Assembly: GCA_016748015.1 (NCBI GenBank)
Contig: JAAOMT010000299.1
Span: 124,001-188,000, forward strand
DNA from: Geosiphon pyriformis uo1
Lineage: Eukaryota > Fungi > Glomeromycota
Length of the DNA: 64,000 bases
Direction of reading: 5' to 3'
The notes beneath the pieces were generated by a model. The model ran no database searches, was not told the origin of the DNA, and was given only the letters and a program-made list of their open reading frames with translations. Made by a program: the position numbers and the translations under genes. This document shows, piece after piece, positions 4,291-61,941 of the stretch (position 1 is the stretch's first letter; each line of letters opens with the position of its first letter).

Positions 4291-4333
4291 TATAATTCTA
4301 CAGAAAACCAGCATCAACAACAATTATCTAAAA

Positions 4334-8880: not shown

Positions 8881-8908
8881 GAAACAACACAGCAAAAATA
8901 ACTTCAAA

Positions 8909-14538: not shown

Positions 14539-14587
14539 AAAACAAAACCAACACCCATTTGAATTAACAGCATCAAAACAACAAACA

Positions 14588-15871: not shown

Positions 15872-15953
15872 TTTAATTTTACTAGTTATTTTCTTATAAT
15901 TTAGAAACAATCTCACAAAAAAAAACAAAAACAAAAATAACATAAAAACCCAT

Positions 15954-21272: not shown

Positions 21273-21302
21273 AAACATTTCAACCCAAAAATATAACAAA
21301 AG

Positions 21303-22678: not shown

Positions 22679-22738
22679 AATTGAACAACCAAAAGAGTAT
22701 ATAAAAACATGGTATATGCAACAAAAAACAGCAGAAAA

Positions 22739-23368: not shown

Positions 23369-23382
23369 AAAAGAGGGAATAA

Positions 23383-34869: not shown

Positions 34870-34879
34870 TCCCAGACTC

Positions 34880-36246: not shown

Positions 36247-36310
36247 ACAATGTGCAGCAAATTAAATTAGGGAATTCAAATATATATAGCATTCAAAAAA
36301 CAACAAGAAA

Positions 36311-37064
36311 ATGATAAAACTTTCAACATAAACCTGTCAAATCAAATTCTACAACTCTTGAAACAACAATTTGATGCAATTCAACAATTTTTTGCTCAAA
36401 TAGAAGTGACAATTGATAAAAAAAAATATGCTATAAAGATAAGAGCAAGAAAGAGATGGATGTGAGTTCAACTAAACCTAACTGTTCTTATTCCTACACT
36501 CCATCCAAGAAAGAAATTTTACAAAAAAGAATTAAATTGTCTTGGACAGGACTTGAAAAAAGAGTGGAAGAATGAAAAAAAGTTTATAAAAAAAAATACT
36601 TGGTCTTCAAGCTTGAAAAAATTAAAGAAGCTTTAGCTTATGGAACCAAACTCCCCAAAACAAAGGAGTGAACACCAGACAATATCCAGAAAGGAAAAGA
36701 AAGATTTTCTCTAGCATATTGGTTTTACAAAATTGGTAAACAACTAGATTTAAAGACACTATATGGAGACCTTAGTCAGAAAACTTTTAACAAAAAAGCA
36801 ATACAACAAGTAGAAAAATTTATAGGAAAAAGCAACTTGACTTTATATTACAAAGCAGCATATTAACTATATGCCACTTTTTAACATTGTCCAAATATAC
36901 TGTTGTATGAATCTATAAAGACTATAACAGTTAACAACATAGGACAAATAACCAATCAACAATTCAAAGATCTATGAAGAATAATACTCAACATAACCAT
37001 TAAATATTACATGAACAAAGCCAAGATAACAAATACATACAATTTTACAGAAGCTCAATTTTAA
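36311..37064 (+). pseudogene. E ORF3
   Basis: AYWFYKIGKQL...KAAY*LYATF*HCPNILL...IGQITNQQFKDL. Confidence 0.7.
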
Positions 37065-37078
37065 AAAAAGAGGAATAA

Positions 37079-38116
37079 TATTATCCAAATAGAAAAACCA
37101 ATCCAAAATTATAAAGAAACATGACCAAAAACATAACATAATACAGAATAGCACACAATAACATTGGATAATGTGTTATAACTTAGGATAACACAAGATA
37201 ACACATTATAATATGAGATAACACAGAATAACATGTAATAACACCAGATAATGTGTTATAACAAAGAATAACTAGGAATAACATAGAAGAATAAAGCAAT
37301 AACAAAAATAGCAAAGCAATAGTTAACAATAATAAAACAATCAAAAGCAATTCTGTAAAACCAAAAAAATATATAAAAGTGAGTAGTTGCAGAAATTAAA
37401 AAGAAACATCTAGATATGAACCACTAGACAAGAATCAAATATCCATACTCCTTTATTATTTATTATATTCCATATTTATTTTCTGAAATAAATCAATTAT
37501 TAAGATATCAGAATCATGAATTCATGTTCTCAAACTTTGTAAAATTTACATAAATTAACCATTGTTTTGTAATTTCGTTCCAGGACAAATGCTCTTAGCA
37601 TAACTGTCTCAAATTATTAATAATTTGGACCAATCATTCTTGATTATGGTGATTGATAATATTAATTTATCTTTTTCTTTATTTTTTTTCTTTTTTTTTC
37701 TTTTTTTTTTCTTTTTTTATTTTTTTCTTGTGGAGTAACAATATAGTAAAATCGACTGTCTGAGAATAGATTTTGTGATAACCTGATAAAAGAAAAAAGC
37801 TCCTCCTAAGTGTTTGGATATTAATGTTATCTTGATAGCTTACCAGAAGGGCAAAAAGACAATACCAAATCCTAACAACTGTGCTCTTTAGCTCAAAAAA
37901 AAAAGCTTATCTTTATAAGAAGTTCCAATCAGCAAGAACCAAAACTCTGTGCTTTATAACCAAAAAACTCAATGGGTAAATTCACAACCAGTAAAATAAG
38001 CTCTTCAGAAACTGATAATCAAGACTAAACCAACAGAATTACGCAAAAGATGTATTATCAATACTTGAGAGCACCAAACATTATTATTTTCCTAATCCAC
38101 TAAGTTACCCATAACA
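37079..38116 (+). repeat. 3' LTR of E (family 2)
   Basis: Follows PPT AAAAAAAGAGGAATAA; homologous to H and to 28748-29014. Confidence 0.9.
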
Positions 38117-39560: not shown

Positions 39561-40655
39561 ACCAAAAAAGTATATAAGAACACAGTATATATGACAAAAA
39601 AACCAAAAAAATAGAAATATCAGACCATATTTACATCTTAGCTTAACAATTATTTCAGGTCTTAAATCAACAATAATTAGACATAGAAATCACCATCAAC
39701 CACCAAACAATCTGCTATCAAAACACCAAGCAAAAAAAAAAGTACACCATACCAGAGACCATAAAACCAACCAAGAAACTGGTCAGATAAATAGTAGAAA
39801 AAATAAAGAACACTTTTAGAAAAATATCCATTATGGTTTTAACAGAAAAACTTTCAAAAAAAATTAAAAACAATAGATAAAACAACTTTCAATACCATAT
39901 TACTACTGTTATGGGTTGGAGTAATAAGCTAATAGATAGCAAGGGAGAACAGAATTGTAGGGTGATGGAAATAATCAAAGAGAATTCAACTTCAAGGAGC
40001 AAATTAAATAAGTATGAATTCAATGAGCAAGATCAGTCTCATAAAATATCTCAGTCACTATACTTTTTAAAGAATAACTAGGGAATCTGAAGGTAGAGGA
40101 ATAATCCGTACTGTCAACAAATAATCACACCTGGTATAATTCTATGCCTTATGTTGGCATTCTTAAAATTCAATATCAAGTATCAAATGTACTCTTCAGT
40201 CACATTTTATTCAATAATTTTCAAATGCTGCAATTACACATTTTAGAAAAGGGTAAGGAATAATCAACAAATAATCTTTTATTTTTAAAATGTTCAGATA
40301 CTTGAAAGTAGAAAAAGAGAAATTAGTGATAAGAGAAGAATTAAGATGAAATTGTTATTTTATTTCTTTATTTTTTTGATTTTTATATGCTTTTCTACAG
40401 TTAAAAGATTTATTGCTTATATAGCTATTAAAAATAGTTAATAATCAGGTCAACAATTAAGTCAATAATTAGGTCAATAATTAGGTCAATGATCAGGTTA
40501 TTGATCAGATTAATAATCAGGTCAATAATCAGGTCAACAGTCAGGTCATTAATCAGGTCAATGATCACTTTCTAAAAATAGAGTGGCTAATTTATGTGAC
40601 ATCAGTGGCTAATACATGTAATAATTAATAAGAAGTATAAGTTTCAACCATAACA

Positions 40656-41300
40656 TCATCCTCTTCAAAAAGATTGAGCTCTGGTAAAATTAAGCTATTT
40701 ATAATGTAATTTATTGGAAGAGTTTTATTTAACTTAAAGCTAACTAGTTTGTTGAAGTTTTTTGTGGATAAGGTATATAATACTTGAGACAAAATGAGTT
40801 TTATATTCAAGAGACCAAATCTTTGTATTAGAGTTTTGGCTCTTCTAGCAATAGTTAAAACTCTTGGGACATCTAATCATATAATGCCCAAAATTTCTGC
40901 CTGTATTTCTGAAATTGTTTTCTTTATGAATTTTATATTTTTTATGATTTCACCAAAGTGACCATAAAGTTTTAATTGCCTTCCATATAACAAGTTTTTG
41001 TCTATGGGTAAGATTTCTTGAAGTGTTTTTCCAATTGTGTTGAAAGATGGGAGTATAGCTGCTGTTATACTTTCCAACAGATACTTATCCATTTTACTAC
41101 CAATTTTTTCTCTTCTGGTAGTAGTTTTCTTTGGTCTAATAACAGTATGTGTTCTACTGTTATCAATTATGGTGATTTGTTTTCCAATGGTTAGAGTAGC
41201 ATTTGGATAGTTTTTGATCCAATACTCATAAAGAGTATAGAAGGTGTTTTGAATGTTTTGATCCAGAAAATAATTGTTCATGTCAATTGAAGATACCTCT
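40656..41300 (-). pseudogene. G ORF3 (divergent)
   Basis: ORF pieces 40877-41281 and 40625-40810 share a frame between integrase and PPT. Confidence 0.6.
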
Positions 41301-41339
41301 GTTTTGGAAATAGTGCATTTATTATACTTGATTTTTGCT

Positions 41340-42641
41340 AATCATTTGAGTCAGTATTATCACAACAGACAGCCAATTAGGTCGTTTATGATATTTTTTT
41401 AGTCATGTATCATAAACAGAACAATCATTGAAGATTGTTCCAGATTGATCTTGAAGAATATAAGAACTATTGTTCAAAACTTTGTTGATTATAAAGAGTC
41501 CTTTCCACTGGCTAAAAAATTTATTATCATAAACATTGTCTCTGTTAGAACAGTATTCTAGTACCAAATTACCAATACTTAAAGAAAGTGTTTTATAGGT
41601 TTTCTTTTTCTTAAGCTTTTCTTGAAACTGTTTTATCTTTTCAAAAGCAATTATTCATGCTTCTATCAAGAAATCAAGAATGGTATCAAGTCTTCTTTGC
41701 AAAATGTCTTTGTAATTTTCTATTGTGATCTCTTCAAAGAGTATTGTTTTAATGTTAGTTTCTATTGGTAGTGTTACCATGTATTCATAGAGCAGATAAA
41801 AAGGTTCATAACTTGTTATGTCATGATTTACAGTTTTATAAGCAAACAAAGCTGAAGACAGTACTTTGTCTCATAAGTTTATTTCTTTACTGGGTTTGGT
41901 TAGAGTTTTACATAATGTTCTATTGAAATGTTCTACTAAGCTATTTGTTTGGGGATGATAAGGGGAGGAAAGTTTATGACGTATTTCCATTTTTCTACAA
42001 AGTTCTTTAACCAGTGTACTGAGAAAAGCTCTTCTTTTATTAAATAAAAGTTCTTTGGGACAGTCATAATGGCAAATAATATCTTCATAAATAAAATTGG
42101 CTATTGAAACTGCTGTTTGGTCTGGGATGGCTCTTGCTTCTACTCACTTTATAAAATAGTCAGTAGTTGTGATAATATATTTGTTGTCATCAGAAGTAAT
42201 TGTTAAAGGCCTAACAATATCTATACTAATTCTGTCAAAGGATTGACCAACAGAGATTGGATGAATATCTTCTTTGCAATTGGGTTTGCTTCTTCTTTGG
42301 CAGATGTTACAAGTTTTAATGTATTCAACAATGTCTTTTCTCAAGATAAGCCAATAATAATGAGCTAAAGTTTTCTGAATTGTTTTTGTTTTTCCAAAGT
42401 ATCCAGCTAATAGGTCAGTATACATATTGTATATTACAATTTTTTTTTCTTTAAATCTGATGACTTTTTGGAAGCAGTCAGGATTTTTTCTGTTTCTTTT
42501 GTATAATTGGTTCTGGTGAATCAAATAGAAATTTGATTGTTTGTGCAAATGTTCTCTTTAATGTCGAGTGTATTCTGGTGGGTATTGTCTTTTACTTAAA
42601 AATTCTATTAAAGCAGAGTAGTTGTCCAAGTCCATTATCAT
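41340..42641 (-). pseudogene. int: G integrase (separate ORF, YP..Y..Y-type N-terminus)
   Basis: MDLDNYSALIEFLSKRQYPPEY...NQLYKRN, CNICQR, SIDIVRP, YHPQTNSLVE, WKGLF. Confidence 0.82.
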
Positions 42642-42699
42642 GTTTGTTTGTGAAAAGGTTACTAATAATTAAGTTGGTTTGGTTTGAGAGATTGTACTA

Positions 42700-45600
42700 T
42701 CACTAGATGATAAGTCTAGAAAGAGTGTTGGTGTTTTGATAATTTGCTCCTTTGTGGTGTTGAATGTCATAGTTAAATTCATCCAAGTGGAGTATTTAGT
42801 GAGTTAGTTGTTTGTGTTCTAACTTTTTTTTCTTGCACAGTCAAACCAAGACTTGATGATCTGTTAACATTAAGAATTTTGCACCAAGAAGATATTGATC
42901 TTAGTAGTTAGTAGCCCAAACTACTGCTAAGCATTCCTGTTCAGTAACTGAATAGTTTTTTTCTACTGGTATAAGAAATCTACTGGCATATGCTATGGCA
43001 TGTTCTCTGCCATTTTTATCTTTTTGTGAAAAGACAGCACCAAGTCCATAGCCAGATATATCAGTGTGGAGGATAAAAAGTTGGTCCAGATCAAGTTGTT
43101 TGAGAATTGGTTCAGTAACCAGTTTTTCCTTCAGAAATTCAAAAGCTTTTTGTTGATGAGTGTCTCAGTAATAATTGATATTTTTCTTGAGTAGCTGATT
43201 GAAAGAAAAGGTGATTTTGGAGAAATTCTTAATAAATTTGCAATAGTAAAAAGTTAAACCAAGGAAAAAACATAGTTCAGGAACATTCATTAATTGTCTA
43301 ATGTTCTGAACTTTTTCAACTTTAGCTGGGTCAGGAAAGATTCCATTTTTTGTAATAAGATGACCAAAGAACTGGGTGGATTGGCATCCAAAGAAAGATT
43401 TAATTGGGTTGATCTTAAGGCCAGCATTTCTGAGCAGGTCAAAAATTTTCTGTAAATATTCAAGGTGTTCATCCCAGGTTTTTGAATATACTATTATGTT
43501 ATCCAAGTAAACCAGAACAAAGTTTTCTTTTACTGATTCAAACACTTTATCCATTAGGTGTTGAAAGGTGGAAAAAGCATTGGTGAGACCAAAAGGCATA
43601 ACTGTAAATTCATAAATGCCATACTTGGTGATGAAAACAGTTTTTTTTCTGCTTTCTGGATCCATCTTTATTTGCCAGAATCTAACAGTTAAGTCAATGG
43701 TTGAGAAGAAAGCAGCACTATTGAATTTATCTAGCATTGCATCAATTTTGGGAAGTAGATACATGTCTCTTATAGTGATGGCATTTAATTGGCAGTAGTT
43801 AACACAAAAGCATAGGGTTCCACCTTTTTTGAATACTACTACAACTGAGAAAGCTTATTCACTTTTGGTTTCTTGTATGAATCCAAGATCTTTTATCTGG
43901 TTTATCTCTTTCTTGATAAACTTATTATTATATTAATTGGATTGATAAGACTTCAAATAGATGGGGCAAGTTTTTTTGGTAGTGATAGTGTGTTGTATCA
44001 CATGGGTTTGTCCAAAAGTGTTATCTTCTTTTGAAATAACTGGGCTATTTTTAGCCAACAGATTTTCAATGTCAATTTTTCTTTCTTTAGAAGAAGGTTT
44101 TCTTTGTTTTACAACTAATGATTGGATTTCAAATGGTTCATTTTCAAAGGACTTTTGTACTTCTTTAAGTTTTTCTCAAGATATCAAGCTAATTGGTTCC
44201 AAATCTTTGTAATAAAGCAGGCAGGATTTGCATTTATTACTTGGTAAATGCAAAGGTTTATTACACCAGCACTGTGCACAAGGACCATGCCACCAATAAC
44301 TGTATTTTGCTTTCTTGCCAGGTTTTCTGTTAAAGGTTCTTCTGAGAATATCATAGTAGGACCAGCAGATTAGCTTGCCATTTACAATGATTCCTTCTTT
44401 GTTAGCTTTAACATTATCTAGTGGCTTGTCATTACTGGTAAAGATAGTATAGGTGAGTTTAGCAGTTTTTTTTGGTTTTTTTTGATCTTCATTATTACTT
44501 TCATTATCATCTGATTTATCTGATTGTTTTTTTTCTTGGTTCTGTTTGGTTGCTAGAGAAGTTGTCCAATGACAGCATTTAACCACAATGGGTTTTTTAC
44601 CATATCTGATGGTTAGCTTGCACAGTTTATAGTCAAGTAGTGCTTTGGCTTTTTTAAGCCACTCATTACCAACAATAATGGTATACTTTTTTGCTTTAGA
44701 TACTTCCATATCTGTTTCAATGCTGATATTATTGATACGGACAAGAATAGCTTTGGCTATGCCCAGGCCTTTTTTTTTGTCACCATGTATATTGGTCATT
44801 GGTCTTGTAGAAGGCTCATCAATTTTTCTGCCAATTGCTTCAAGAAAGTGTTTGGCAATTACATTAACAGATGATCTACTGTTTAGAATCAGGTTAATAA
44901 AGTAACCAGCCACTTAAGCTTTACAAATCAAAGAGGTAACATTGCTGTTATTAGCAAGTCCAGCTTGGTGAGAGCATTTGTTGATCTTTGGTGTTTTTTT
45001 CTTTGGTATTCATGATTTATGAAGATTTTTTCTAAACTGTAGATAAGTTATTAGTTGGCCAAATGTTATGTGTGCTGGGATTTTCATGAGATCTTTAACA
45101 ACAGAATAAGGACCAAATTTTTGTACTATTTCTGGAGGTTCTAACTTTAGAGAATTCTTGAAAACTTTGGTCTTTTGTGGTTCATTGTTATTAGCAGATA
45201 ATTTGGATGCTTTGTTTGGATCCAAGACGAAATCAATCTTGGCTTTCTTCTTTTTTCTGGTTAATTCAGAAGTGTTGATTGCTAGTTTATTCATATTATG
45301 ATTATCATCAATTAGGTTAAAAGCATAAAAGAGGTTTTCTTCTGATTGGCTTGCACTCTTATCCTTTGGAAGTGTGCCTACTAGTTTAAAGACTGATAAA
45401 CAGTGGCTTCAACTAAGGGATCCTCTTCAAAAAAATTGATATTAGCATGATTGGGTCTTTGATTGGGGACATTGTTGTTAATAGTTCTGTTGTTTTGATT
45501 GTCATTGTTTCTAGGAGCTAGAGGAGGCAAAGAAGAATTGTTACAATCTTTGAAGAAATGTTCAGTTAATCCACAGTAGTAACACACAGGTGGGTTACGA

Positions 45601-46931
45601 TTTTGTTGTTTTTAATATGGGAGTTGCTAAGGCTAATTGAAGCAGAGTTCAAATCTGGGTCTTTGGGGTTGCTGATTGTTTCTGACTACTTGGGCTAATA
45701 GTTTTAATAACTAAACAAGATTAACTATAAGTCTATCTATTAACTGTTCATTTGGGTTTTGAGTTTGGGCAGCAAAAAAAGTAGCAGCCATTTGGGAAGC
45801 AGGAGCCATAACAGAAGCAAGAACAAAAACTGGAAGTGTGAATTCTAGATACATCCTTTGATTGTCTTCTATTCTCTAAGCAAGTTTAATGACCATATTC
45901 ATTGTGGGATTATTTTTTAAGACTAGGAGGGGCCAAAAAGCATATGATAGATCAGTTCTCAGTTCTTTTGTGAAGGAATGTATTTTCTGCTTTTCTGTCT
46001 AATTTCTTCTAGAGTCTACACATTTAATGAGTTTTCTTATTGCTTTGGTATATTTTGTCACAATTTTACCAAGGCCTTGAGTTCTTCTTTCTAATTTTAT
46101 ATGTCATTTTGAGATTAAGATGGGAGTTCTAAATTTCATTTCAAACTGGGTAATGAAAGAGGTGTTGTCTTCTCCAGCATTTGCTGGTGCCCATCTAATG
46201 ATTTTTTGTTAAGCATTGGCATTGGTTTCTTGTGAGAACCAAGTAGCAGAAGAGCCTTGAAGGTAGCCACCAATGATTTGGAACTTGTATTCATTATCAT
46301 ATTGGTTTGCTGTAACAGCTCTCTCAAAATCATCTAGCCATTTAATTGGATCTTAGACATCACCTCTGAATAATAGTAATAAGATGTTGTTTCTTTGCCC
46401 TAAAGCAGTCTGTATACCTTGGAGGTCGATCAGAATGTTTTGTTGCAAAGGGTCTTGAGCCATTGGTTCAGGTGTGACTGTTTGTGTAGAATGTTCTGAT
46501 TTACTTGAAAAGAGATCAAAAACAGAAGTGGTTTGATAGCTTTCTTCTTTTGTTTCAAGAGGAGTTTCAATTGATTGATGGACAGCAATCCAAATGTGGA
46601 TTTGATAATTCAGATATTCAAAATCAGAGGGCTGTTGTTTAAAAGTTGTTGAGTATAAAAGTTGATTAATGTTGTTGTTTCTTTCTTCACAGTTGTTTTC
46701 AAAATAAACTTGGTTAAAGTAATAGATTGTATAAGCTGTATAGGTTTCAGCTGAATGTTCATTCAAAAACCAGTTCTAAAAGTCTTGGAATTGTCTGCTG
46801 AATTGTTCTTCAATAGGGAAGCAAATCAAGCAAAAGGGCAAAGAATTGAGTTTAATAAAGTCTAGATCATTTTTGTTGTGTGCTTTAAAGTGTTCTTTTG
46901 ATTGTTGTGGCAGGTATGAATAATTACCCAT
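42700..46931 (-). pseudogene. gag-pol: G Gag-PR-RT-RNaseH
   Basis: CYYCGLTEHFFKDC knuckle, LILNSRSS protease, short Cys cluster, RT FTVMPFGL / YLDN, RNase H IAYASR. Confidence 0.85.
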
Positions 46932-47234
46932 ACAATAGAAAACAAAGTGGATTTTGACAACCTTACAGGAAGCACCACTTTTATGTTACAGGTTGGAGTA
47001 ACAAGCTAACAAATAACAAGGAAGAACAGAATTGTAGGGTGATGAAAATAATCAAAGAGAATTCAACTTTAAGGAGTGAATTGAATAAGTATGAATTTAA
47101 TGTGTGAGATTAGTCTCATAAAATATCTCAGTTGCTATACTTTTTAAAAGATAACCAGAGAATCTGAAGATAGAAAGATAGTCTGTACTATCAACAAATG
47201 ATCACACCTGGTATAATTTTATGCCTCATGTTGG

Positions 47235-48262
47235 TGTTACCTGAGTAGAAAAACCAATCCGAAGTTAGGAAGAAACATGACCAAAATGTGACATAACACA
47301 GAATAGCATGCAATAATGTTGGATAATGCATTATAACTTAGAATAGCACAGGATAATGCATTATAACGTAGGATAACACAGAATAACATGTAATAACACC
47401 AGATAATATATTATAACATAGGATAACTGGTAATAATATAGAAGAACAAAGCAATAACAGAAATAACAAAAGCAATAGTTAGCAATAACAAAACAATCAG
47501 AAGCAATCCTATAAAACCAAAAAAATGTATAAAAGCAAGTAGTTGTAGAAGATAGAAAAAAAAAAAACAGATAGATATGAATCATTAGACAAAAAACAAA
47601 TATTCATATCCCCTCCTTATTTATTATATTCCATATTTATCTTCTGAAATAAATCCATTATTAAGAAATCAGAATCATAAATTCATGTGCTCAAACTGTG
47701 TGGAATTTATGTGAATTAATCATTGTTTCATATCTTCATTTCAGGACAAATGCTCTTAGCATAATCATCTTGAACTATTAATGACTTAGACCAATCACTC
47801 TTAATTATAGTGATTGACAATACTAATTTATCTTTCCTTTTTTTTCTTTTCTTTTCTTTTCTTCCTTATTTTCTTTTGTGAAGTGGCAACATAGTAAAAT
47901 CGACTGTCTGAGAATAAACTTTGTGGTAGCCTGGTAAAAGAAGAAGGCTCTCTTTAAGTTTTGGATATTAACATTATCTTGTTAGCTTACCAGAAGGGTG
48001 AAAAGACAATGCCAGACTCTAATGACTGTGCTTGTTAGCTCAGAGAAGAAAGCTTACATTTACAGAAAATGTTGCAATTGATGAAAAACAAACTCTGTGT
48101 CTTATAACCAAAGAACTCAACAGGTAAATTCACATCCAGAAATAGACCTTCAGAGACTAATAATCGAGACTAAGCCAACAGAATTATGCGGAAGATGCAT
48201 CACTTATAATTAAGAGCACCAAACATTATTATTTCTATTACCCACTAAGTTTACCCGTAACA
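47235..48262 (+). mobile_element. H: solo LTR, family 2, inside the G 5' LTR
   Basis: TGTTAC...GTAACA with perfect TSD TTGG; the empty site is visible in G's other LTR (~40151-40162). Confidence 0.95.
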
Positions 48263-49521
48263 TTGGCACTCTTAAAATTCAATATCAGGTATCAAATGTA
48301 CTCTTCAGTCACGTTTTATTCAATAATCTTCAAATGCTGCAATTACATTTCAGAAAAGGATAAGAAATAACCAACAAGTAATCTTTTATCTTTAAAATGT
48401 TTAGATACTTGAAAGTAGGAAAAGGGAAATTAGCAATAAGAGAAGGATTAAGATAAAGTTGTTATTTTATTTCTTTATTTCTTTGATTCTTATATGCTTT
48501 TCTACAGCTAAGAGATTTATTACTTATATAGCTATCAAAAGTGGTCAATGATCAGGTCAATGACTAGGTTAATGATCAGGTCAATGATTACTTTTTAAAA
48601 ATAGAATGGCTAATTTATGTAACATCAGTAACTAATACATGTGATAATTAATAAGAAATATAAGTTTCAACTGTAACACTACTATTAGTTGGAACAAAAG
48701 TTAGATATTCAGAAGTTATATCTCAATAAAGCCAAAAAAATATTCAATTAAAAGATAATATAGAATATTAAAGACATTATTAAAAAAAAAACAAATCTGA
48801 TACTACATATTAAAACAATCTATTAATTACACATAATATTTTAAAACTACCTAGAAATATTGCTATACTTTAACATGGAGACAATAACTATTAACCAGTA
48901 GAGGAGAATAAACAATTCACAAATTGAAGATATAAAGAAACAAAATTAAATAAACAATATTAGAAAGAGAAGTTATGGACCTAATTCAAAATGAAGATTT
49001 TGACAAAGCTCAATATTAAAAGGAGGAGATAATATTACTCATAAAAAAAACATACAAGAAAATAAGTAGAAAAAACAGATAGACCAATAAGAGAATAATA
49101 GCTAATATGTAAACATATTACTTAGCAATATGGAGCATTATTAGAAATTATGGCATATTGCTCAGCAATGTAAAGCAATATTAAGAAATCATAACACATT
49201 GCTTAACAATGTAAGCATTGCTTGAGAAATTATAGTATATTGTTCAGGAATATGAGTGATCTTATAGAACCCAAATTATGTATATATAGCAAAAGTATTA
49301 GAAGCAAAAAAGACAGAATCAATACCAAAATCTCTTAGTTAAAACATCTTAATTAGAATTATCAATATTAATAAATAATTATTTATCATCTAAATTACTT
49401 TTATCATTATTAACACTTCATATTAATAGTCTTCAATACTTGATCACACTAGAACAATAGCTTTTAATTATGGCTATTGATGAGATACTAACTCTTTTTT
49501 GTCTTGGCTTATTTCTTTATT

Positions 49522-49572
<51 letters not shown>

Positions 49573-52003
49573 TTTTGTTATTATTTACTAATTGACAAAA
49601 GATTAAAATATGCAGAGTTATTGATGTCAAAGTAACTGGTAAAAGACCCAGAAATAAAAGTAAAACACTCAAGGATTGAAGATAACTTATCAGAAGGATT
49701 ACTAGCCACTATGCTAAGAAAAAAATTTAATGAAATTGTGATTCTGGAAAGTAATAGTGTTACTTATAGAAGATAGGAAGTATATTAGCATACAAATTAG
49801 CCAATTAAAAATAGCTGTAGTAAATATGGAATTTTAGAATTCTTCTCAAAAGAATTGCAAAATTCCAGGAATTTCAGGATTTTTATACAAGGAATTGCAA
49901 GATTTCAGAATTCCAAGATTTTTCTCAAAAAAATTGCAGAATTCCAGGAATTCCAGGATTCCTGATGTAAAAAATTGAGGAATTAAGGAATCTCAATTAT
50001 GTATATATAGTGGTAATATTAGAAGTAGAAAAAACAGACTTTTTAATTTATATTTGATCTAAAAACACCTTTCTATTCACAACTATTAATAAATAATTAT
50101 TTACTATTTCAATCTACTCTTCACTATCAATACTTTATATTAATAGTAATTGATACTTAACTATACTAGAACAATAGTTCTTGATCACAGCTATTGATGA
50201 GATACTAATATTCATTGTCTTGGCTTATTTTTTTATTTTTTTTATTTTTTTTTATTTTATTTTTTTTATTTTATTTTTTTTATTTTGTTATTCTTGTTGT
50301 TATTAATTGATTAAAAATTAAGCACTAAGTTATTGACATCACAGATAGCCTGGTAAAAAACCCAAAAATAAGGGTAACATTATATATATTTTAACAAATA
50401 GCTTATTAAAAGGGCACAAATGCCAGAATAAAACTGGTCACCAAGCTAAAAAACAACAATCACAACTGAATCTCTGTCTATTATACAAAAAACTTTACCA
50501 CAAAACTTTCAAACTACTAAAACCTTCAGATTACCAAAATTTTCAGATACAAACATCTTACAGATAATACTAACCAATTTATCAATTGAATACCAAGTTA
50601 CAAATTTGTTATTTAATTTGAGACCCCAAATAATCACTTGTAATATTTGGTGCTTCCTGTAAGGTATAATCTAACAGAGAACCAGTATTAACTGCACCCA
50701 TTCAAAACAGTAGCAAAATCAAAAGAAACAGAAACAAACCACTTGGGATTTGCAAAATTCTTATTTCAACATTATTACACTCATCTTAAATTAACAAATA
50801 ATAGTTGGCCAACAGAATTAGCTTTCAATTACTATGTCAATAAAAGAATAGTATATTATTTAAGAAACCAAGGAGATCCAGAATTCATCTTCAATAATTT
50901 TTTCAGTAAACTATTTTAAAGCATCATATTGCCACAGAATTATTTATTTGCACCACTAATCATAGAAATAAATAAAAAATAGAAAAATACATCAAACAAA
51001 GATTCTCCATTACCTTTGCCAACAAAGGAAAAAAAAGATTGCAAACACTAGCAAGAACTCCAAAGCAAATCCAACTACCCACTTAGAAGAAACAAAGATT
51101 GAATTCACTTGCTAATCTATCATATCACCACTGTTACAGGTGATTATTTCTGCTGTTGAATTAAATAACAAATCTGTAACTTGGTGCTCAAAAGCTATTC
51201 TCATTGTCGATAATCTGAAGGTTTGGTATTTGAAGGTGTTGTATCTGAAGGGTTTGATGGAGTTCTTTGTATAATAGACAGAGATTCAATAGTGTCAATA
51301 GTAGGTGTATCTTTCAAAGAGTTTTCCCAATTTCTTTCTCAGCATGATGGCCAAATTTAGTCTGGCAGTTGTGCCCTTCTGGTAAGCTATCTGATAATAT
51401 ATAAATCCTACCCTTATTTCTGGGTCTTTTACCAGGCTATCTTTGATGTCAATAACTCAGTGCTTAATCTTTTAATCAATTAGTATCCAACAACAAAATC
51501 AAAGACAGAAAGAAAATAAAATAAAGAAAAATAAAAAAATAGAGAAAATGAGTCAAGACAATTTGGTACATTAGTATCTCATCAATAGCTGTGATTAAGA
51601 GCTATTGTTCCAGTGTGATTAAGTATCAATTACTATTAACATGAAGTGTTGATAGTTGAGAATGGTTGAGATATGAAATAATTATTTATTTGATGATTGG
51701 GAACTAGAATGTTGCTTAGATTAAATCTAAACTAAAAAGTCTCTGTTTTCAGCTTCTAATCCTACTGCTATATATACATAATTGAGATTTCTCAATTCCT
51801 CAAATTTTCACAACAGGAATTCTGGAATTCCTGGAATCCTGCGATTCCTTTGAGAAAAATCTTAGAATTCTGGAATCCTGCAATTCCTTGTCAGAGAATC
51901 CTGAAATTCCTGGAATTCCACATTTACTACGCCTACTTCTGATTGGCTAATAACTATGCTAATATATTTCCTATATTTCTATGAGTAACATTATTTCCTC
52001 CTT

Positions 52004-52633
52004 TTAATATTGAGCTTCGTCAAAATCCAACTCATTTAATTCCCTCTTTTGAAGTATTTTCTGGATTTTGTTTTCGAGAATTACTTGTGTTATTTGGGTC
52101 TGTAATTCTTCAAATTGAGCATTGGTGATTTTTCCCAATTGGTTACTGGTAACCGCATCTATTGCTTTGTTGAACAATATTTTTGGTCTATCCTGAAATG
52201 CTGTGTGTATTCGGTATATGGCTCGGGCCTGTGTGGATAAGTTGTTCTTTCCCACAAAATGTTCTAATTTTTGTAGTATTCTTTTGTTGAATAATTGCTT
52301 TGTTTTATCTATATATAGATTCTGGATATTTACATGTTGTCCCAAGTAAAAATAACAATAGTTTTATGAAAATTGTTATATCCACCAATTCCAAGTTTCT
52401 TTAGTCAACTCTTGATATAGTGACTCTTTTGTCACCTTTTTTATTGCTAATTTTACTTTTGCAATGATTTTGTCCACAGTATTTTCAGTTTTCTTCTGTG
52501 TTCTGAGTTGAAATGTCTTTCTAGTATCTTAATATCGAATGGTTTGTTAATTGATTGTAATCTCTATTTCCTGGTGTTAGATTAATTAAAAGAGTTGTTG
52601 TGCTAGTGAGTGAATGTTGTCTGTAATTTCCAT
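52004..52633 (-). pseudogene. J ORF3
   Basis: MEITDNIHSLAQQLF...YCYFYLGQH...ARAIYRIHTAF...LGKITNAQFEEL...QY*. Confidence 0.78.
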
Positions 52634-52687
52634 TTTTCTGATATTTCCTGTCACGTCTACTATGTCTTTATATATTCTTTTGATGAA

Positions 52688-54070
52688 TCAATTTAACGTG
52701 TTGTTGTCGATAATAATGATTGGTTTCAGATCTCGTGGAATCTCATCTGGTTGGACTAGTATTCTCTGTACTCCTAATTGTGGAATATTACTGGTAGATA
52801 GTAGTGTAATGTTGTGATATGGTTTTAGTCGATCTCCATGTGCTGTTTTGGTTAAAATTTTGTTATCCAATCTTAATTTGTAAGCTCCATTTCCTAGAAT
52901 TTCTTCTATGTGAAATGGTCCATCTCATTTGGGGTCAAATTTTCCACTCTATTGTTTTTCTGCTTTGGTATGATGTAGTAATACTTTGTCTCTAATCTTG
53001 AATTCAACTGGTTTGTCTGGTAGTTGACTATTGTGTCTTTCTTTCTGTGTTTCTTGTGACTTTTGAATATTATCAGCTGTTCTTCTTCATTTGTTTTCCA
53101 ATGTTTCCATTAAGTCATATGTTCTTCTCAGCAATGTTTCTTGAAAATTTTTCTCTGTTATTGGTTCAGCTGGATATGTATTAATTTTTCTCTCTACTGG
53201 TAACGTTGCTGTTCTCCCATATACTAATTCAAATGGTGTTGCTTGTGTAGTATCTTGTTTTGTTGTCCGATAAGCAAATAGTACTAATAGTATGAACAAA
53301 TCCCAATTGTTCTGGTTTTCTTGGCTGAGCTTAGCTATTGCTTCACACAATGTTTTGTTGAATCTTTCTACTAATTCGTTGGTTTGTGGATGGTATGGTG
53401 ATGATAATGATCTCTTGATTCTGAATCTTTGGCTCAATTCTGTTAATGTTCTGTTCACAAAATGAGTTCCTTGGTTTGATAATAATTCTTTTGGACATCC
53501 ATGTCAACAAATCAAATTCTGATGAACGAATTCGGCAATGGATTCTGCATCTGCTCTTTGAATTGCTTTTGCCTCTGGCCATTTAGTGAGATAGTCCATA
53601 GCTACTGTTATGTATTTGTTTCCTCTGCTGGTGATTGTTAATGGTCTGACTAAATCAATTTCCATACGGTTAAATGGTTGTTACACTTTGATTGGTCTTA
53701 ATGGTTCATTGGGTCTTGTTTCTCCTCTTCGCTAACAAACATCACAATTTTGAACATATTGAATGATGTCTGGGTACATTGATGGCCAATAGTATCTCTT
53801 TTTGGTTCTTTCCATAATTGCTTCTTTGTAAAAATGTCCTGCTGTTGGATTTGAGTGTATGTTGAATAATATTGTCTCTTTTTCTGGTTCTGTAATTACT
53901 CTGGTTGGTTGATCTGGATCTTTTCTATTTTTCCAATAAAGTATATTTTGGTAAGTGATAAAATATTTTGATTGTTGTTTGATACTCTTTCGTTCTGTTT
54001 GAGATAAATTCTCCTTGAACTGTTGAGTGTTTATATAATGTTGCAGTTGTTGATATTTTTGTATGTTCAT
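52688..54070 (-). pseudogene. int: J integrase (separate ORF, different frame from gag-pol)
   Basis: ORF pieces starting at 54070, 53458 and 52870 share one frame; HHCC, DDE core and GPF motif. Confidence 0.92.
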
Positions 54071-54132
54071 CTTTTGTTATATTTTTTGTTGGTATTGTTC
54101 TGGTTTTGTTATATTTTTGGGCTGAAATGTTC

Positions 54133-57100
54133 TTAGATTTGTCTCATTCACAACAAACCATCAACATTTCTATTGTCTTTTCTTTTTTTGTAATGTATGA
54201 TATAATTGTATAGTGCGAGTGCCATTTTCCATCTTGACTGTTTTCCATCTTCAAATTCTTGTTTTTGAAGTGATGTTAATCTTTTGTGATCTGTGTGCAC
54301 TTTAAACTTCTGGCTCAAGTATTCTTTTCATTTCATGACTGCCCAGTATATTGCTAAGTGTTCTTGTTCCAGTGTTCTATAGTTCTTTTCAGCTGGTATT
54401 AAACCTCTGCTGGCATATACTACTGGGTGTTCTCTGCCATCTGGTCTTTTCTGAGATAATACTGCTCCCAATGCTTAGCTGGATGCATTAGTGGTGATAA
54501 TGAATGGTTTGCTGTGATCTGGATAAATCAGTATTGGAGCTTGAATAAGCTTTCCTTTCAAAATGTCAAAAGCTTCTTGTTGACTTTCTGCCCATTCATA
54601 TTTGGTATTCTTGGTTTGCAGTTGGTTAAGTGGTTGCACTATCTTGGAAAAGTTTTTGATAAAACATTGATAATAGCTGGTGAATTCCAAGAATAATTTC
54701 AGTTCTGTCATATTAGTCAGTACTGAAAAGTTCTTTACTATTTCTATTTTCTCTGGATCAGTTTTAATGCCATCTTTGTTAACTATGTGTCCCAAGAATT
54801 TTAGCTCTGTCTTGCCAAAGAAGCATTTTGTTGCATTTAACTTTAACTCTGCTCTTTTTAGTCTTTCAAACACTTGTTGAAGATAATGAAGATGATCATC
54901 AAATGTTTTTGAGAATATGTTGGTGTTGTTTAAGTATACAACTACTGATTTTCACAATAAGCCAGCATAGACGATTTCTATTAGCCATTGAAAAGTGGCT
55001 GGTGCATTGGTTAAACTGAATGGCATTACTTCAAATTCGAAATTTTCTTCTCTTATGGTGAATGCTGTCTTCTCTTTGTCAGCTGGATCCATGGCTATTT
55101 GCCAGTAACCACTATCTAAGTTTAATGTTGAGAACCATTTGTTTCTGTCAAAAGCATCAAATAATTCCTGTATCCATGGAGTTGGATAGCTGTCTCCACG
55201 AGTTACACTATTGAGTTTTTTATAGTCTACACAAAATCGGATTTTTCCATTCTTCTTATGTATGAGTACTACTGGTGATGACCATGGGCTCATTGATGGC
55301 TGAATTAGCCCATTGTCCAGCATCCGGTTTATCTCTTGATAAATAATCTTGTGGCTGGCTGGTGGCACTCTGTATGCTCTTTGTTTAATTGGCATTGCAT
55401 CTCCAGTCTTGATCTGATGCTGGATGATGTCAGTTTGGCCAAACTCATTTTCGCTGGCAAAGATGTTATTGAACTGATTGAGCAACATCTTGAGTTGCAT
55501 ACATTAAAGTGGATCTAAGTTTCTCATGTTCATTTGTTCCAATTGTTCTGATTGGAGCAAATAACATTCACTTCATCCATATATTGTTTGTGATATAATA
55601 TCAACATATTCACAAAGTTGTGGAAAATCTGGAATGGAATTTGGTGGTTGATCCTCTATTTCAGTGCTTAAGTATTCAATAATGGTTCTGGCTGGTATTA
55701 CTATGGCATTTCCTGTGTTATTGTAGATGGGAATTTTGATGTGGCTGTGATCTTTGGCTGGTATGTGGAGATTGATGAGTCCAACTTCTCCTAATTCACA
55801 AAGACTGGCTTCTGTTTCAAAAATTTGTGCTTGGTCTTTTTCCTTCCTTTCTATTGCTAGCATGTACTGATTATATGGTGGAATGGAAATAGCTTGACCG
55901 GTTGAGATAATTTCTCCTTGGCCAACAATTTCTTCCTCTGCCATGTTAACTAGTACATCTATTCTATTCATTGATCCAAATCCCTGTATTTCTCTTGCTG
56001 TTATTCCTAATTCCTCCCTCTTTTCCATTGATACTAACTGAGCTATTCTAACCAGAGGCAGGAATATTGTCTGTGCTATCTTTTTGTTGGGCTCTATTAT
56101 ATAGGCCTTTTCTGAGTCATTTTGTAGCATAGCAATAATATTTCTCACATATCCTGCATCAATTATTCCTCCTCTTATATTAATCTCTCTTTTCACTAAA
56201 CTACTCTTAGATGCTAATTAACCATTGTTGTTGCCGGAATTTCTAGTGTTATTTTCAGATCAATGCAGGTGCATGAATGTGGTTCCAATTTAATGGCATC
56301 TTTTCCTGAATATCTCAGATCAAACCCTGCATCAGTATCATGCATATGTTCTGGCATAATACCTTCCCCATTGTCACTATACCATTTCAACTCTTGTTTT
56401 TTGAAAAGATCTGGTAGTGCAATGTATTGTTTATAGTTTAAATCGGAGTTTGAACCTGAGTTTGAATCATTTTTGTTGTCCTTGCCATTTTGAATGGAGC
56501 TGGAACCAATGTTTTCATTATTGTCATCAAAGTCTGGATCACAATTGATCAGTGATTCTGATTCTGATGTACAGCTGCTGATTGGTTCTTCTTCTTCAGG
56601 GATCGAGTAGATCATGTATGGTGGTGGATTGTAAATGAGGTCACAATTGTCACAATATTCAAAGTTACTGAGAATTAAACAATGATGACACAGTCTTGTA
56701 TTCAACTGTGCTAGCCATTGTTCTTGCTCTTCTCTAGTGAGTGCCAAGTTTTGGTAGTGTTCATGGAACTCTTCTGGTTCCAGTGAATTTAGGACTGACT
56801 CTGCATCCCAGTCAAGCTCGATGAATTCTGGTGGATTGTTTTTGATTTCTCTGATCTTTTCGGATGTCGCTCCTTCTATTTTGGTGATTGTCATTCTCCA
56901 CATTTCATTGTCGTTATGTGGACAACTGTCCAGTCACTGCACGGCTCTTCTCCAGGCTGCTTCTATTGGAGTTCTTTTTTACCCAGTCGCTTATTAGAAT
57001 TGTGTATTGACATGACACATCACACGTTCTTCCACATTCTGGGATGTCATTCCACATTCTTTCATCTAATAGGGTCTCTCCACAAGCGAGACAAGGTTGG

Positions 57101-60100
57101 TTATCCCATTTTCCTTGCCTCTTTGGTCATTTAAAACATTTGAGTAAGCATGGACGACAGTAGAATTTTGTTGTGGTGTGGTATTCCTCATTGTCGCTAC
57201 AGCATGTGCCCATTGATAACAGTTTCTTGCTGCAATCGATGCATACCAGCCTTGGCCATCGATAATTGAATTGTTGTGGAGTGTGGTGGGTGTAGGAATT
57301 ATAAATGGTGGTGGTTGGGGGCATTCTTTCTTTCTTTTCTTTTCCTTTTCTCTTATCTTCATTCCATTCCCAACTTGAGATTTCTTTTTGTTTGTTATTG
57401 GTCCAAATCAGATCATTGGTTTCCCAGGTAAGTTCTTTTCTTTGCTTTCCCTTGGGGTTGTTGTCCCATGATAGTATTGGCAGTAGCTCGTAGTGGTCTT
57501 TGTCATCGGTTCAAACATCAATAGTGGCTCCACCAGTATGTTCTTTTCCTTGTTCCTTTTTTCTGTTGTTATCGTCGTCTCAGGCGAGTATTGGTGGCAG
57601 TTCATTGTAGTCGACGTTGGCCCACGAGACTTGGTAAGCTTCCCAGGTAGGTTTCTTTTTTTCTTCCTCCAGTTTGATCAATAGTTTCTCTCTTGGAGGA
57701 GTCTTAAAGTGGCCACACATGGCCAGTACACATATGTGTTGGCCTTAATATGTTAGCTGGAGTTCCTGGGTGTTCCAGTCTAACATCGCGTTGACTTTGG
57801 ATAGCCAGTCATTACCAACCAGGGCTTGGTATTGAGTGGCTTCCATTACTAGAACTTTAATGGAAGTCATGATGCCATTGACTTCGAAAGGGAAGTCGTT
57901 GATTTCGCTGATTGGAGTTTTGGTCGCTCCATCAGCTGTGATAATTCTGCCACTGGCAGCTCGATCAACTCAGCAACCTAATTGATCCATGAGTTGTCAT
58001 GTGATGATGCTGCCTGCTGAACTGCTGTCAAGGATCAATTTAATGGATTGTCTTTCGACTTTGGCATCAGTGTACATCGCAGTGATTGGTTTGGCTTCAA
58101 GAGTGGCTTCACTAAATAATGGCATTGCAGCTGTTTCCTCGAATTCAAATGGGAAGATAGCAGCTAAGGACTCGTCTTCGGTAATGGTGGCAGATGGGAT
58201 ATTACTGGTGAGTGGTTGGTTTTGGGCGAATGTTGGTTTATTGGTTGAGGCATCTTCTGGGGTGACCAGAAAACTTAAATAGTTCTGGGAATTCGGGTTT
58301 TGGGTTTGACCAGTACCTGAATTCTGCTGGCATAATCCCGATGGTTGCTGTGAAAAACTAGGGATCAGTTGATGGACTACTATCGCCGATCTCCAGCTCT
58401 GTTGAGTTATTCTTAGTCTTTGGGTTCTGTTGGGTGGTAAGCTTTGGGGCGGTGTTTGAATTTGTTGGGGTTGATAAATTATTTGTGGCTGCAGTTGTTG
58501 ATAAACCACTTGTGGCTGTGGTTGATAAATTGGAGCTTGATACACCGGAGACTGATAGATTGATGACTGCATCACTGGTAAGTAAGCAGGTTGGTTTTGA
58601 TTTGGGTACTGATTTGGAGTTTGGAACTGGCGATTGGGGCTTTGATATTGATTTCCCGATTGTTGGTTATTTAATCACTAATGACAGTCAATTTGGATAT
58701 GGCCTTGTTTACCACAGTAGTGGCAGATACACGTTTCCTGTTGCCACTGTTGATTGGTTGATGAAGATAGATGTAGTTGATTTTGAACACGATTAAAGTT
58801 TCCTTGATTATTGCATCGTTGTGGAGACTGATAAATGGCGTGATTGTCAGCTAAGTATTCTTCCAATCTCTTATTAATTGATTCACTAAACTTCTCCAAT
58901 TTGGAATCCAATTCAGATGGTCCGTTCATTACTAGATTAACGGCTTGGGCATGGTTAGCCTCTGATTCAGCAGATTCAAAATCTCTGGCATGTGTGACTG
59001 CATCCTGAAGGATGCCTGAATGCAACGGATGTACATGTTGTAAGATGCTGCTGTGCAGGCCACAAATAAACTGATTGAGTATCTGTGGTGCTGTGAAATA
59101 GTTGGCATCAATTGCTTGAATTTGGCACAGGTTTTAATGGAAGCATCTCAAGTAAGTGGTGACTGCTTCAGTTTCTCCTTGTTTCATGGTAGTAAATATA
59201 TTGACTAGGCGATTGATGCTGTTATTGTTGCTGAAGTATTTTAGGAATTCCGCTTTGAAGACATTGAAATCTTGAGGTTTATTAACCAAGCTTTGATACC
59301 AGAAATCGGCGGTATCTTTGAAAAAGTAAGGAATGGCTTGTATTGCTTGGGCATTATTCCATCCATTGGCTGCGATGGCTTTTTCTACATCATTCAGCCA
59401 TACTTGAGCATCATCCTCTTCGCCAGTAAAGTTGTCAAGTTTTGCGATTGGTGCATAGGTCATTGGATCTAAGTTAGGTGGTTGTGGTGGCTGTTGGAGC
59501 AGTTGTTGTTGTTCTGGCTGCTGGGATGGTAGTTGAAGTGGCTGCTGTATGGGTTCGGCTATGGGATTAATCGGTGATTGATCGATGATGTTTACCAGAG
59601 GTAAGTTTTGCTGATTAATTAATTTGGGGTTTGGATTGTTCTGCCTTTGATGATTCAGAGTTTTGATTTCCGAATTTTCTAGATCTGGATTTTGCTGAGT
59701 TTGAAAATTCGGAGTTTCAACTTTCGGGTTTTCAGTAATCAGGTGCTGGTAAGTGAATTTTTGGTCTTCTAATTCTTTTTCCTTTTTTCTTGATTCTGCT
59801 GCTTCCCATGGATCAGAAATTTCGAAATTTGGTAGAGATGGTGGTGATTGAAGTTCTGATGAAATTGATGATTGCGAATTAAATCCCTCAAAGTATTTGC
59901 CATATGGTCCTAATAATTCTGTTTTTCTTTGTCTACTTTGAAATGGGAATTGTCCAAATGCTGGTGTCGCAGTTGATGGGAATGCATCTGTTGATGATAT
60001 GTGGATGGCACTTCCAGGTGTATAGTGGTAAGATAAATTGCTTGGGGATTCAATTCTGTTTTTCTTCCAAGTAGGTGGCTGTATTTTTCTGGGTGTTATG

Positions 60101-60444
60101 GCTGGTGTTTGTAATTTTCCCTTGCCTTTACTAGCGTAGGTAATTGGATATTTTTGTTGAGTGTGATGTTCAATTTCTTTGTTGATCTCAGTAATGATGG
60201 ATGTGAAATTATGATTTGTTGGTAGGTTGGTGTTTTGAATTAATTCCCTATAGAAAGTTTCTCTTGCTGATTCAATATTCACTGGTGTTCCTAATAAAGA
60301 GAAAATTTTTTTGTTAACATAGAAATTGAAGGCTGATTCGACAGATATATGATTGTGATTTAATCCCAAGTGTTGACAATAGTGTTGAAATAAGGATTTT
60401 GCAAATCCTAAATGGTTTGCTCCTATATTTTCTGATTCTGCCAC
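54133..60444 (-). pseudogene. gag-pol: J Gag-PR-Cys-rich-dUTPase-RT-RNaseH polyprotein
   Basis: Pieces starting at 60444, 59025, 58575, 57324, 56196, 55500 and 54873, and the stop at 54135-54133, share one frame (only 56214-56903 is locally shifted). CHYCGKQGHIQIDC, LILDSSSAGS and RT motifs present. Confidence 0.93.
55965..56390 (-). pseudogene. dut: dUTPase domain of J
   Basis: HDTDAGFDLR, SSL, GGIIDAGY, KIAQ, REIQGFGS. Confidence 0.9.
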
Positions 60445-60487
60445 TTTTGGTTTGGTGTCATTGGTGCTGGTTCTTTGTAGGATTAAA

Positions 60488-60506
60488 CCTTACAGGGAGC
60501 ACCAAA
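60488..60506 (-). promoter_or_regulatory. PBS of J, TTTGGTGCTCCCTGTAAGG (probable elongator tRNA-Met primer)
   Basis: TGG begins 2 nt after the LTR end; complementary to a tRNA 3' end ...CCU(C/U)ACAGGGAGCACCA. Confidence 0.85.
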
Positions 60507-61941
60507 TGTTACAGGTGATTATTTTTGCTGTTGAATTAAATAACAAATCTGTAACTTGGTGCTCAAAAGCTATTCTCATTGTCGATGATCTGAAGGTTTG
60601 GTATCTGAAGGTTTTGTATCTGAAGGGTTTGATGGAGTCCTTTGTATAATAGACAGAGATTCAATAGTGTCGATAGTTGGTGTATCTTTCAAAGAGTTTT
60701 TCCAATTTTTTTCTCAGCATGGTGGCCGGATTTAGTCTGGCAGTTGTGCCCTTCTGGTAAGCTATCTGATAATATATAAATCTTACCCTTATTTCTGGGT
60801 CTTTTACCAAGCTATCCTTGATGTCAATAACTCAGTGTTTAATCTTTTAATCAATTAGTATTCAACAACAAAATCAAAGACAGAAAGAAAATAAAATAAA
60901 GAAAAATAAAGAAAATAGAGAAAATGAGCCAAGGCAATTTGGTATGTTAGTATCTCATCAATAACTGTGATCAAAAGCTATTGTTCTAGCGTGGTTAAGT
61001 ATCAATTACTATCAACATGAAATATTGATAGTTGAGAGTGGTTGAGATATGGAATAATTATTTATTTGATGATTGGGAACTAGAATGTTGCTTAGATTAA
61101 ATCTAAACTGAGAGGTCCCTGTTTTCAGCTTTTAATCCTACTGCTATATATACATAATTGAGATTCCTCAATTCCTTGATTCTTCACAACAGAAATCCTG
61201 GAATTCCTGGAATCCTACAATTTCTTTGAGAGGAATCTTGGAATTCTGGAATCCTGCAATTCCTCATCAGGGAATCCTGAAATTCCTGGAATTCTACAAT
61301 TCCTGAGAAGAATCCTGAAATTCCACATTTACTATGCCTACTTCTGATTGGCTAATAACTATGCTAATATATTTTCTATATTTCTATGAATAACACCACA
61401 TATTTGAAAGCACTATTAATATAATAGACATGTCTACAACAAACATAACAACATTATTAAACAGAATCCTATTCCAAAGTAAACAAAAGAAAGCAGAGTT
61501 ACTAAGAACATATGGCAATTATTTTGAGAAATTTAAATTGTGATTTCTAACACCATTAGGAACTTGATCACTACTATCACAACCAGATTTTAGAACTGTT
61601 AGTCTTTAAAAAATAACTGGCTTCAAAGAAAAGAAAGATAATGATCAAGAAATTAATAAGCAAAATTCAATTCTAAAAAATCAAAAAATTTAAACCCTGA
61701 TCATTTCAACTCAAAAAAATCAGAACAATTCAAATACCACCTCTATTGTTGTCCAAAACTTACTTCCAGTAATTATGATTAATCTACCACCAGCCCTACC
61801 AATTACTAAACAGCAATAGCAATAGCCACAACTACCACTCTAGTAGCAACTACAACAGCAATCTTAACCTCAACTGCAACAACAACTACTATTAGCACCA
61901 ATAGCATATGCACCTATTGCCAAAATTGAGAAATTTACTAG

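Follow-up and report, generated by a model that had tools for sequence, protein, structure and literature searches.

The window analysed here, a stretch of 64,000 nucleotides from the glomeromycete fungus Geosiphon pyriformis (contig JAAOMT010000299.1, positions 124,001 to 188,000), contains five decayed long terminal repeat (LTR) retrotransposons of Ty3/gypsy type, named J, C2, B, E and G, which represent four families. In all of them the integrase is a separate open reading frame (ORF) with its own ATG, located beyond the stop of a polyprotein that ends with RNase H (RH), and is followed by a further frame, ORF3. Element J (51132-61395, minus strand), a full LTR element with LTRs 90% identical by blastn, is composed as follows:

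60507..61395, minus strand: 5' LTR, TG...CA
60488..60504, minus strand: primer binding site (PBS), 2 nt past the LTR, sequence TGGTGCTCCCTGTAAGG
54133..60489, minus strand: ORF1, encoding Gag (CCHC), protease, a Cys-rich region, dUTPase, reverse transcriptase (RT) and RNase H, closed by TAA at 54135-54133
54071..54132, minus strand: spacer from the RNase H stop to the integrase ATG, 62 nt, A-rich and ATG-free
52688..54070, minus strand: ORF2, stand-alone integrase, 460 codons with 6 decay stops
52004..52633, minus strand: ORF3, about 210 codons, no Pfam match and no hydrophobic segment
51991..52005, minus strand: polypurine tract (PPT), overlapping the end of ORF3
51132..51990, minus strand: 3' LTR; target-site duplication (TSD) CCAC at 51128-51131 and 61396-61399

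ORF1 of J is interrupted by decay stops and by two frameshifts near 56960 and 56240. Pfam profiles recognized Gag, dUTPase, RT, RNase H and integrase in this element, its protease being located by tblastn similarity instead; a Pfam protease was matched in B and, weakly, in G. The J integrase has an N-terminus of the YPYY type, H2C2, rve and SH3/GPY regions and no chromodomain match. For ORF3 of J, Geosiphon gene models start about 10 codons upstream of the start called here.

The RNase H-integrase junction in the window

RNase H of the five elements, as well as that of fragment H, is closed by a stop at a homologous place, 3-4 codons past the D-x-L-S-R motif. The spacers separating this stop from the integrase ATG (62 nt in J, 30 in C2, 49 in B, 10 in E and 61 in G) are mutually non-homologous, and they set the integrase in frame +2 (J), 0 (C2) or +1 (B, E and G) relative to RNase H. 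Since a homologous stop is combined with unrelated spacers and varying frames, the split does not represent the decay of a single uninterrupted frame. All five elements have an ORF3 between integrase and PPT; in family 1, ORF3 shares its frame with the integrase stop, which might in principle have arisen from a CGA by decay, yet this stop is placed where homologous integrases end. The canonical gypsy layout, with integrase as the C-terminal part of Pol, was found in none of these elements. Direct TG...CA LTRs, PBS, PPT and TSD are present, and Gag, protease, RT, RNase H and, lastly, integrase follow one another in that order with gypsy-type Pfam domains.

The first-pass annotation had proposed that one complete layout was common to all five elements. 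The separate integrase with its own ATG and the ORF3 before the PPT hold throughout, but the dUTPase and the gag-pol ORF do not extend to G, nor the common PBS to B. A dUTPase between protease and RT was detected in J, C2 and B by Pfam and in E by tblastn; G lacks it, has a short and different Cys motif, and carries gag and pol in different frames. The PBS of B agrees with those of the other elements over 8 nt only. Besides J, the elements are arranged as follows:

3374..24273, plus strand: C2, with LTRs of the J family, broken up by B and by a solo LTR (4746-5614); RNase H stop 21270, integrase ATG 21303, ORF3 22739-23368
7884..17876, plus strand: B, the least decayed of the set; TSD ATGC; PBS unlike the others; RNase H stop 14536, integrase 14588-15868, ORF3 about 15993-16712, extending into the 3' LTR
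28744..38116, plus strand: E, 5' LTR truncated; RNase H stop 34867, integrase ATG 34880, ORF3 remnant to about 37067
39907..48678, minus strand: G, the most divergent, without dUTPase; TSD CTAC; RNase H stop about 42705, integrase ATG about 42641, ORF3 41281-40655; solo LTR 47235-48262 within its 5' LTR

Across the whole window, GC content is 26-41%, CpG loss is marked and LTR elements are stacked in nested order. Differences between paired LTRs consist of 53 transitions and 3 transversions in J, 118 and 7 in C2, 53 and 4 in B, and 71 and 2 in G, and C>T/G>A changes occur in every sequence context; because LTR pairs differ almost only by transitions in all contexts, the internal stops of these copies are attributed to decay. 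The LTRs of B and G have only short AT-rich matches to other families, in agreement with the earlier remark that LTRs of families 3 and 4 barely resemble the rest.

Most fungal gypsy elements make 5-bp TSDs. Read in element orientation, the 4-bp target flanks of the window have a Y-R centre in 9/9 insertions, against a background of 0.227, and their fourth position is G in 8/9, which supports oriented 4-bp targets of the NCGG type in this window. In C2, the TSD copies ACAG/GTGG match only when C>T/G>A decay is allowed, and the TSD of E, with its truncated 5' LTR, cannot be paired.

Two further features were noted. A minus-strand element at 24718-28151, with E-family LTRs, an internal deletion, its own PBS and TSD, and interior tandem repeats at about 26280-27070, is likely non-autonomous. 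A perfect 217-bp tandem duplication in the B 3' LTR (17089-17521), surrounded by decayed sequence, is either very recent or an assembly artefact. No tRNA genes were found in the window, no Rfam matches in the window or in 13 relative loci, and nothing relevant in viral contig scans.

Intact relatives and the extent of the clade

A search with the J integrase retrieved 927 proteins within 253-805 aa, a length filter that cannot reveal fused forms; the best 120 of these matches were all 392-438 aa long, and five were named Rhizophagus irregularis. Neither integrases P0001 and P0002 nor those best 120 of 927 had a Pfam chromodomain match; a chromovirus assignment was rejected, there being no chromodomain at the integrase C-terminus. 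Genomic context was examined in 80 metagenome loci and 80 loci from prokaryotic bins. Among loci L001-L092, 49 carried both RNase H and integrase, of which 15 were split with an own ATG, 30 were scored as fused and four were broken without an ATG. Every locus of this set with at least 48% core identity to J was split (13/13), the 30 fused loci being more distant. Because the closest relatives having both genes are split alike, decay does not account for the separate integrase. Rhizophagus, too, has intact relatives.

Polyproteins tell a similar story. From 120 long RT-RH proteins listed, 62 with one RT match of at least 43% were scored; 27 lack integrase and end 0-8 residues past RNase H, and 11 more integrase-less proteins have tails of 22-398 residues. 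Three Rhizophagus clarus gene models (P0209, P0214 and P0224) join RNase H to integrase, but the last RNase H motif is deleted at the join and two of them also miss parts of the integrase core; these joins would be artefacts of predicted introns that skip the stops.

In one subclade, acidic Cys/His-containing tails of 200-590 residues follow RNase H in the usual place of the integrase (L006:3488-4438, L022:4936-6702; P0192, P0195, P0198, P0210, P0216 and P0235); two tails examined gave no convincing Pfam match.

Phylogenies were built from gypsy-type and Gmr1-type RT-RH rows only, without outgroups from copia, BEL or retroviruses (of 174 sequences, 124 passed an 80% filter and entered FastTree, and 63 were chosen for IQ-TREE), and from 82 integrase rows, 54 of them chosen; decayed rows have a skewed composition in these trees. 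The RT-RH of the window elements groups among gypsy elements, in a clade of 30/63 rows (support 96/99) comprising 14 split elements, 14 integrase-less polyproteins, the protein P0197 and one R. clarus model. Apart from L037, every split or stand-alone integrase belongs to the corresponding integrase clade (25/54 rows, 97/93), and so does the same R. clarus model. B, E, J and C2 are united in a subclade (100/99), and the place of G within the clade was not settled by the tree; an exclusive clade of the four window families was not recovered and not rejected (p-AU 0.23). A larger integrase group of 37 rows (98/92) unites the split clade with Ginger1-like loci and plant-type elements. L071 and L080 are presumably Athila-like from their motifs. 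A sister grouping of split clade and Ginger-like loci was not supported (82/35 for the alternative) and not rejected (p-AU 0.40). On one integrase tree L037 appeared near Ginger1-like integrases; it is possibly a second origin of the split or a deep relative.

Other features vary within the clade. The PBS of L006 is like that of J, and L002/L003/L022/L084, L001 and L012 represent three further types, at least four in all among the relatives. A Gag zinc knuckle and protease share one ORF in 14/38 clade polyproteins, the rest starting without a knuckle owing to truncation or a gag/pol break, and in L015 the gag and pol frames overlap. A dUTPase stands between protease and RT in relatives P0174 and P0206, and a NUDIX/MutT domain just before the protease in P0205, P0215 and P0220; two different nucleotide-sanitising enzymes have thus been captured within the clade. 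Hence the original idea of a coherent clade with separate integrase is borne out by intact relatives and both trees, but the whole package does not define it, since the layout with three ORFs, the dUTPase, the Cys-rich insert, the joint gag-pol ORF and the PBS type all vary inside; what its members share as a derived trait is the split integrase. This clade of Ty3/gypsy elements is real, widespread and far wider than the four window families.

Some members (L084, L085, P0524 and P0086) occur under bacterial names in prokaryotic genome bins, most likely as contaminating fungal DNA. In soil contigs L001, L002, L003, L006 and L084, ORF3-PPT-LTR-PBS-gag is continuous with open frames, a pattern that, as from assembly collapse of near-identical LTRs, suggests young, high-copy elements. 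L020 and L031, divergent elements in which no ORF3 or PPT was seen and whose integrases have long C-terminal tails, share a non-coding stretch 3' of the integrase (L020:2370-2520 and L031:3130-3290; 111/165 columns identical), with no Rfam match.

ORF3 and the expression of the downstream genes

Among 33 loci surveyed for ORF3, 14 carry a member of a family of about 145 aa (most of the 14 seeded the profile), six have the PPT-LTR 21-201 nt past the integrase without any ORF3, three have neither, nine were too short or decayed, and one had no integrase C-terminal match. Since six relatives lack it, ORF3 is optional and not required for the split design. The family comprises 532 clusters at 50% identity (E <=0.001), Gigaspora and Rhizophagus proteins included; Arg, Leu, Gly and aromatic positions are conserved among its members, and the predicted structure is all-helical, with eight helices (pLDDT 96.5). 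No convincing sequence match was obtained in Pfam, NCBIfam or PDB, and no 19-residue window reached a hydrophobicity of 1.6 among 167 ORF3 sequences; an envelope protein was rejected in view of the missing transmembrane segment and env Pfam match. Fold searches gave no hit with E <0.001 in PDB or BFVD with Foldseek, and VIA reached at best Z 5.3 (rmsd 3.3, 69 aligned). ESM Atlas leads for P0245, a closterovirus coat protein (0.94, 152 features) and a translation repressor (0.92, 138 features), were discarded as falling below the shared-feature threshold with no fold-search backing, and P0246 gave no usable match there. Most likely, ORF3 would be a soluble accessory factor binding nucleic acid or protein.

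The window ORF3s are longer (210-240 aa); the predicted structure of the Geosiphon ORF3 was poor (pLDDT 47) and set aside. The best 120 matches to an ORF3 profile were all Geosiphon pyriformis gene models, one of which is 86-87% identical to the ORF3 of B. From position and motif spacing they are likely homologous to the family of the relatives. In several families ORF3 continues into the 3' LTR, the PPT doubling as coding sequence (16681-16712 in B; L022 at about 9180; L010).

The junctions offer clues to expression. Spacers between RNase H and integrase span -8 to 163 nt in 12/14 cases, and stop/start overlaps occur at 2/14 of these junctions and 2/13 integrase-ORF3 junctions. Only two ATGs were seen in the spacers against 7.3 expected (p 0.015), 10/11 integrase-ORF3 spacers are ATG-free against 5.1 expected (p 0.0002), and a purine occupies position -3 of the integrase start in 11/14. 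Restart of translation is favoured by spacers that are short, A-rich and poor in ATGs, by starts in good context and by stops that overlap starts; readthrough and frameshifting agree poorly with the occurrence of all three frames and of unrelated spacers. We consider it probable that the five elements are decayed members of a Ty3/gypsy clade, found in fungi of arbuscular-mycorrhizal type, with a separate integrase and, usually, a helical ORF3, both likely made by restart. For restart of the integrase on the full-length RNA taken by itself, the junctions leave the balance about even. The claim that these elements have their own expression logic thus keeps its structural part, the separate ORFs, expression itself being deduced from the junctions.

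According to this proposal, ribosomes would end ORF1 at the RNase H stop and restart at the integrase ATG, and then at ORF3, on the same full-length RNA. The integrase would reach the cDNA without riding on Gag-Pol, probably through contact with RNA or Gag inside the particle. Replication would otherwise proceed as in other Metaviridae, a tRNA priming at the PBS, the plus strand starting at the PPT and the DDE integrase inserting the cDNA.

Several observations weigh against this proposal. P0197 is a continuous 1530-aa Gag-Pol-integrase, placed inside the RT clade (95/85 with P0162) and outside the integrase clade. L037, a split element on a long branch, falls outside both clades, and joining it was not rejected (p-AU 0.38). 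Reference elements named in GyDB or Repbase are absent from the trees. ORF3s of the window match the family of the relatives faintly (hhalign E 3e-4 at 40% probability and 8e-4 at 25%, over about 50 C-terminal columns; hmmsearch 8.5 and 5.8 bits), and the ORF3 of G not significantly (E 0.1). Two long spacers of 365 nt with 7 ATGs and 727 nt with 12 fit restart poorly, and the sequences that precede the integrase ATG had no RNA structure or motif in common (z -3.2 to +2.0). Termination-reinitiation of the TURBS type uses an upstream UGGGA and a stop and start within a few bases of each other; a UGGGA-like motif was present at 1/14 junctions, and the overlaps are as few as given above. In addition, eukaryotic ribosomes normally need a helper to translate consecutive long ORFs (PMC5902531), and ATG-poor leaders are equally expected on subgenomic RNAs.

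This last point leads to the strongest alternative, less probable than restart but a serious possibility, in which the layout is the same and integrase and ORF3 are translated from subgenomic RNAs produced by splicing or internal promoters. The long ATG-rich spacers and the lack of a common restart motif are in its favour, as are precedents: foamy virus Pol comes from a spliced mRNA (PMC3705302), and ORF3s of LTR elements typically from spliced messages (PMC5408684). On the other hand, stop and start overlap at 4/27 junctions, 3/12 spacers have no AG within their last 40 nt, and the top shared 6-mers, all just A-rich, included no conserved acceptor or promoter motif.

A second alternative concerns novelty. 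The papers searched contain no description of a separate-integrase layout; Repbase (e.g. Gypsy-1-I_RO), GyDB, Dfam, subscription papers and supplements lay beyond that search and may hold one, so that the label 'undescribed' applies to the papers searched. It is rather unlikely that the clade is already catalogued, for instance near Gypsy-1-I_RO, a Rhizopus element, among the YPYY groups by Athila/Tat, with the layout on record elsewhere. PMC2836005 does place Gypsy-1-I_RO in YPYY-integrase groups by Ginger1 and Athila/Tat, the same tree neighbourhood as found here; its accessible portions, however, are silent on a separate integrase ORF, none of five integrase arrangements in the accessible text of PMC2774666 is a separate ORF past RNase H, and PMC12440569 (2025), in the part available, still treats integrase as a Pol domain. 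Finally, that the split is decay of an ordinary uninterrupted Pol, or that readthrough, a frameshift or an intron bridges it, can be dismissed as very improbable: C>T/G>A stops abound in the window copies, R. clarus models join the genes and P0197 is truly continuous, but intact relatives retain the stop in all three relative frames with unrelated spacers, and the R. clarus joins cost RNase H and integrase motifs.

Comparison with known systems

Integrase is taught as a piece of Pol that is cut out and packaged along with it, a rule that a large and successful clade breaks, raising two testable questions: by what means an integrase gene placed downstream comes to be translated, and by what route its product finds the cDNA. 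LTR elements make up 41% of the Geosiphon genome (PMC11952901). Databases list stand-alone integrases and ORF3s of this kind among host genes, labelled 'hypothetical' or 'DDE transposase'; since the rve domain serves as a Ginger marker in screens (PMC5751038), such screens may for this reason miscount them.

The closest known elements are the YPYY gypsy groups near Athila/Tat (Gypsy-1-I_RO and DGLT-A; Bao et al. 2010, PMC2836005), alike in TG...CA LTRs, PBS, PPT, protease-RT-RH-integrase order and an H2C2, rve and GPY/SH3 integrase with YPYY-type N-terminus and no chromodomain match. Unlike them, the clade described here has the integrase as its own ORF with its own ATG and, in many members, a conserved unnamed ORF3; DGLT-A has a single Gag-Pol ORF (PMC5911963). 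Troyka, with CG ends and a 3-bp TSD (PMC12440569), was rejected, and so was the Gmr1 type, in which integrase precedes RT (loci such as L078 and L108). Bdelloid Juno and Vesta (PMC5408684) and fungal chromoviruses cited in PMC2774666 likewise have a dUTPase and an extra ORF before the 3' LTR, but their integrase stays in Pol and their ORF3s are of env, GDSL, DEDDy or transmembrane types (PMC5408684, PMC2774666), which window ORF3s match neither in Pfam nor by any transmembrane segment.

Enzymes made without Gag fusion are also known from foamy virus Pol and from the polycistronic RNA of caulimoviruses with its TAV factor (PMC3705302, PMC5902531). In foamy virus, however, the break lies at Gag/Pol with integrase still within Pol (PMC3705302), and caulimoviruses are mostly without integrase (PMC5902531). 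Searches in Pfam, PDB and BFVD revealed no similarity of ORF3 to TAV.

Ginger1 transposons resemble the clade in having a Gypsy-like integrase that stands alone, is about 400 aa long and shows YPYY, H2C2, DDE and GPY/F features (PMC2836005). The window elements differ in having LTRs, Gag, protease, RT and RNase H, with direct instead of inverted terminal repeats, and no OTU/Ulp1 match on the integrase, a tail confirmed in three (L064, L107 and L115) of eight Ginger1-like loci. The Ginger1 4-bp TSDs, CCGG or CCGT/ACGG (PMC2836005), resemble the decayed N-Y-R-G flanks of the window, whose Y-R centres and position-4 G are compatible with them, but these flanks have decayed by C>T in all contexts; a CpG-centred target preference may be common to both. 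We can imagine, as a speculation that we ourselves think improbable, a living link between Gypsy and Ginger1, a polycistronic LTR element with a free, CpG-seeking, transposase-like integrase one deletion away from Ginger1, and with an ORF3 of new fold that helps reinitiation or suppresses silencing and would be the first factor of TAV type outside caulimoviruses. As to whether Ginger1 arose from Gypsy elements, a question left open in PMC2836005, the split elements offer candidate intermediates.

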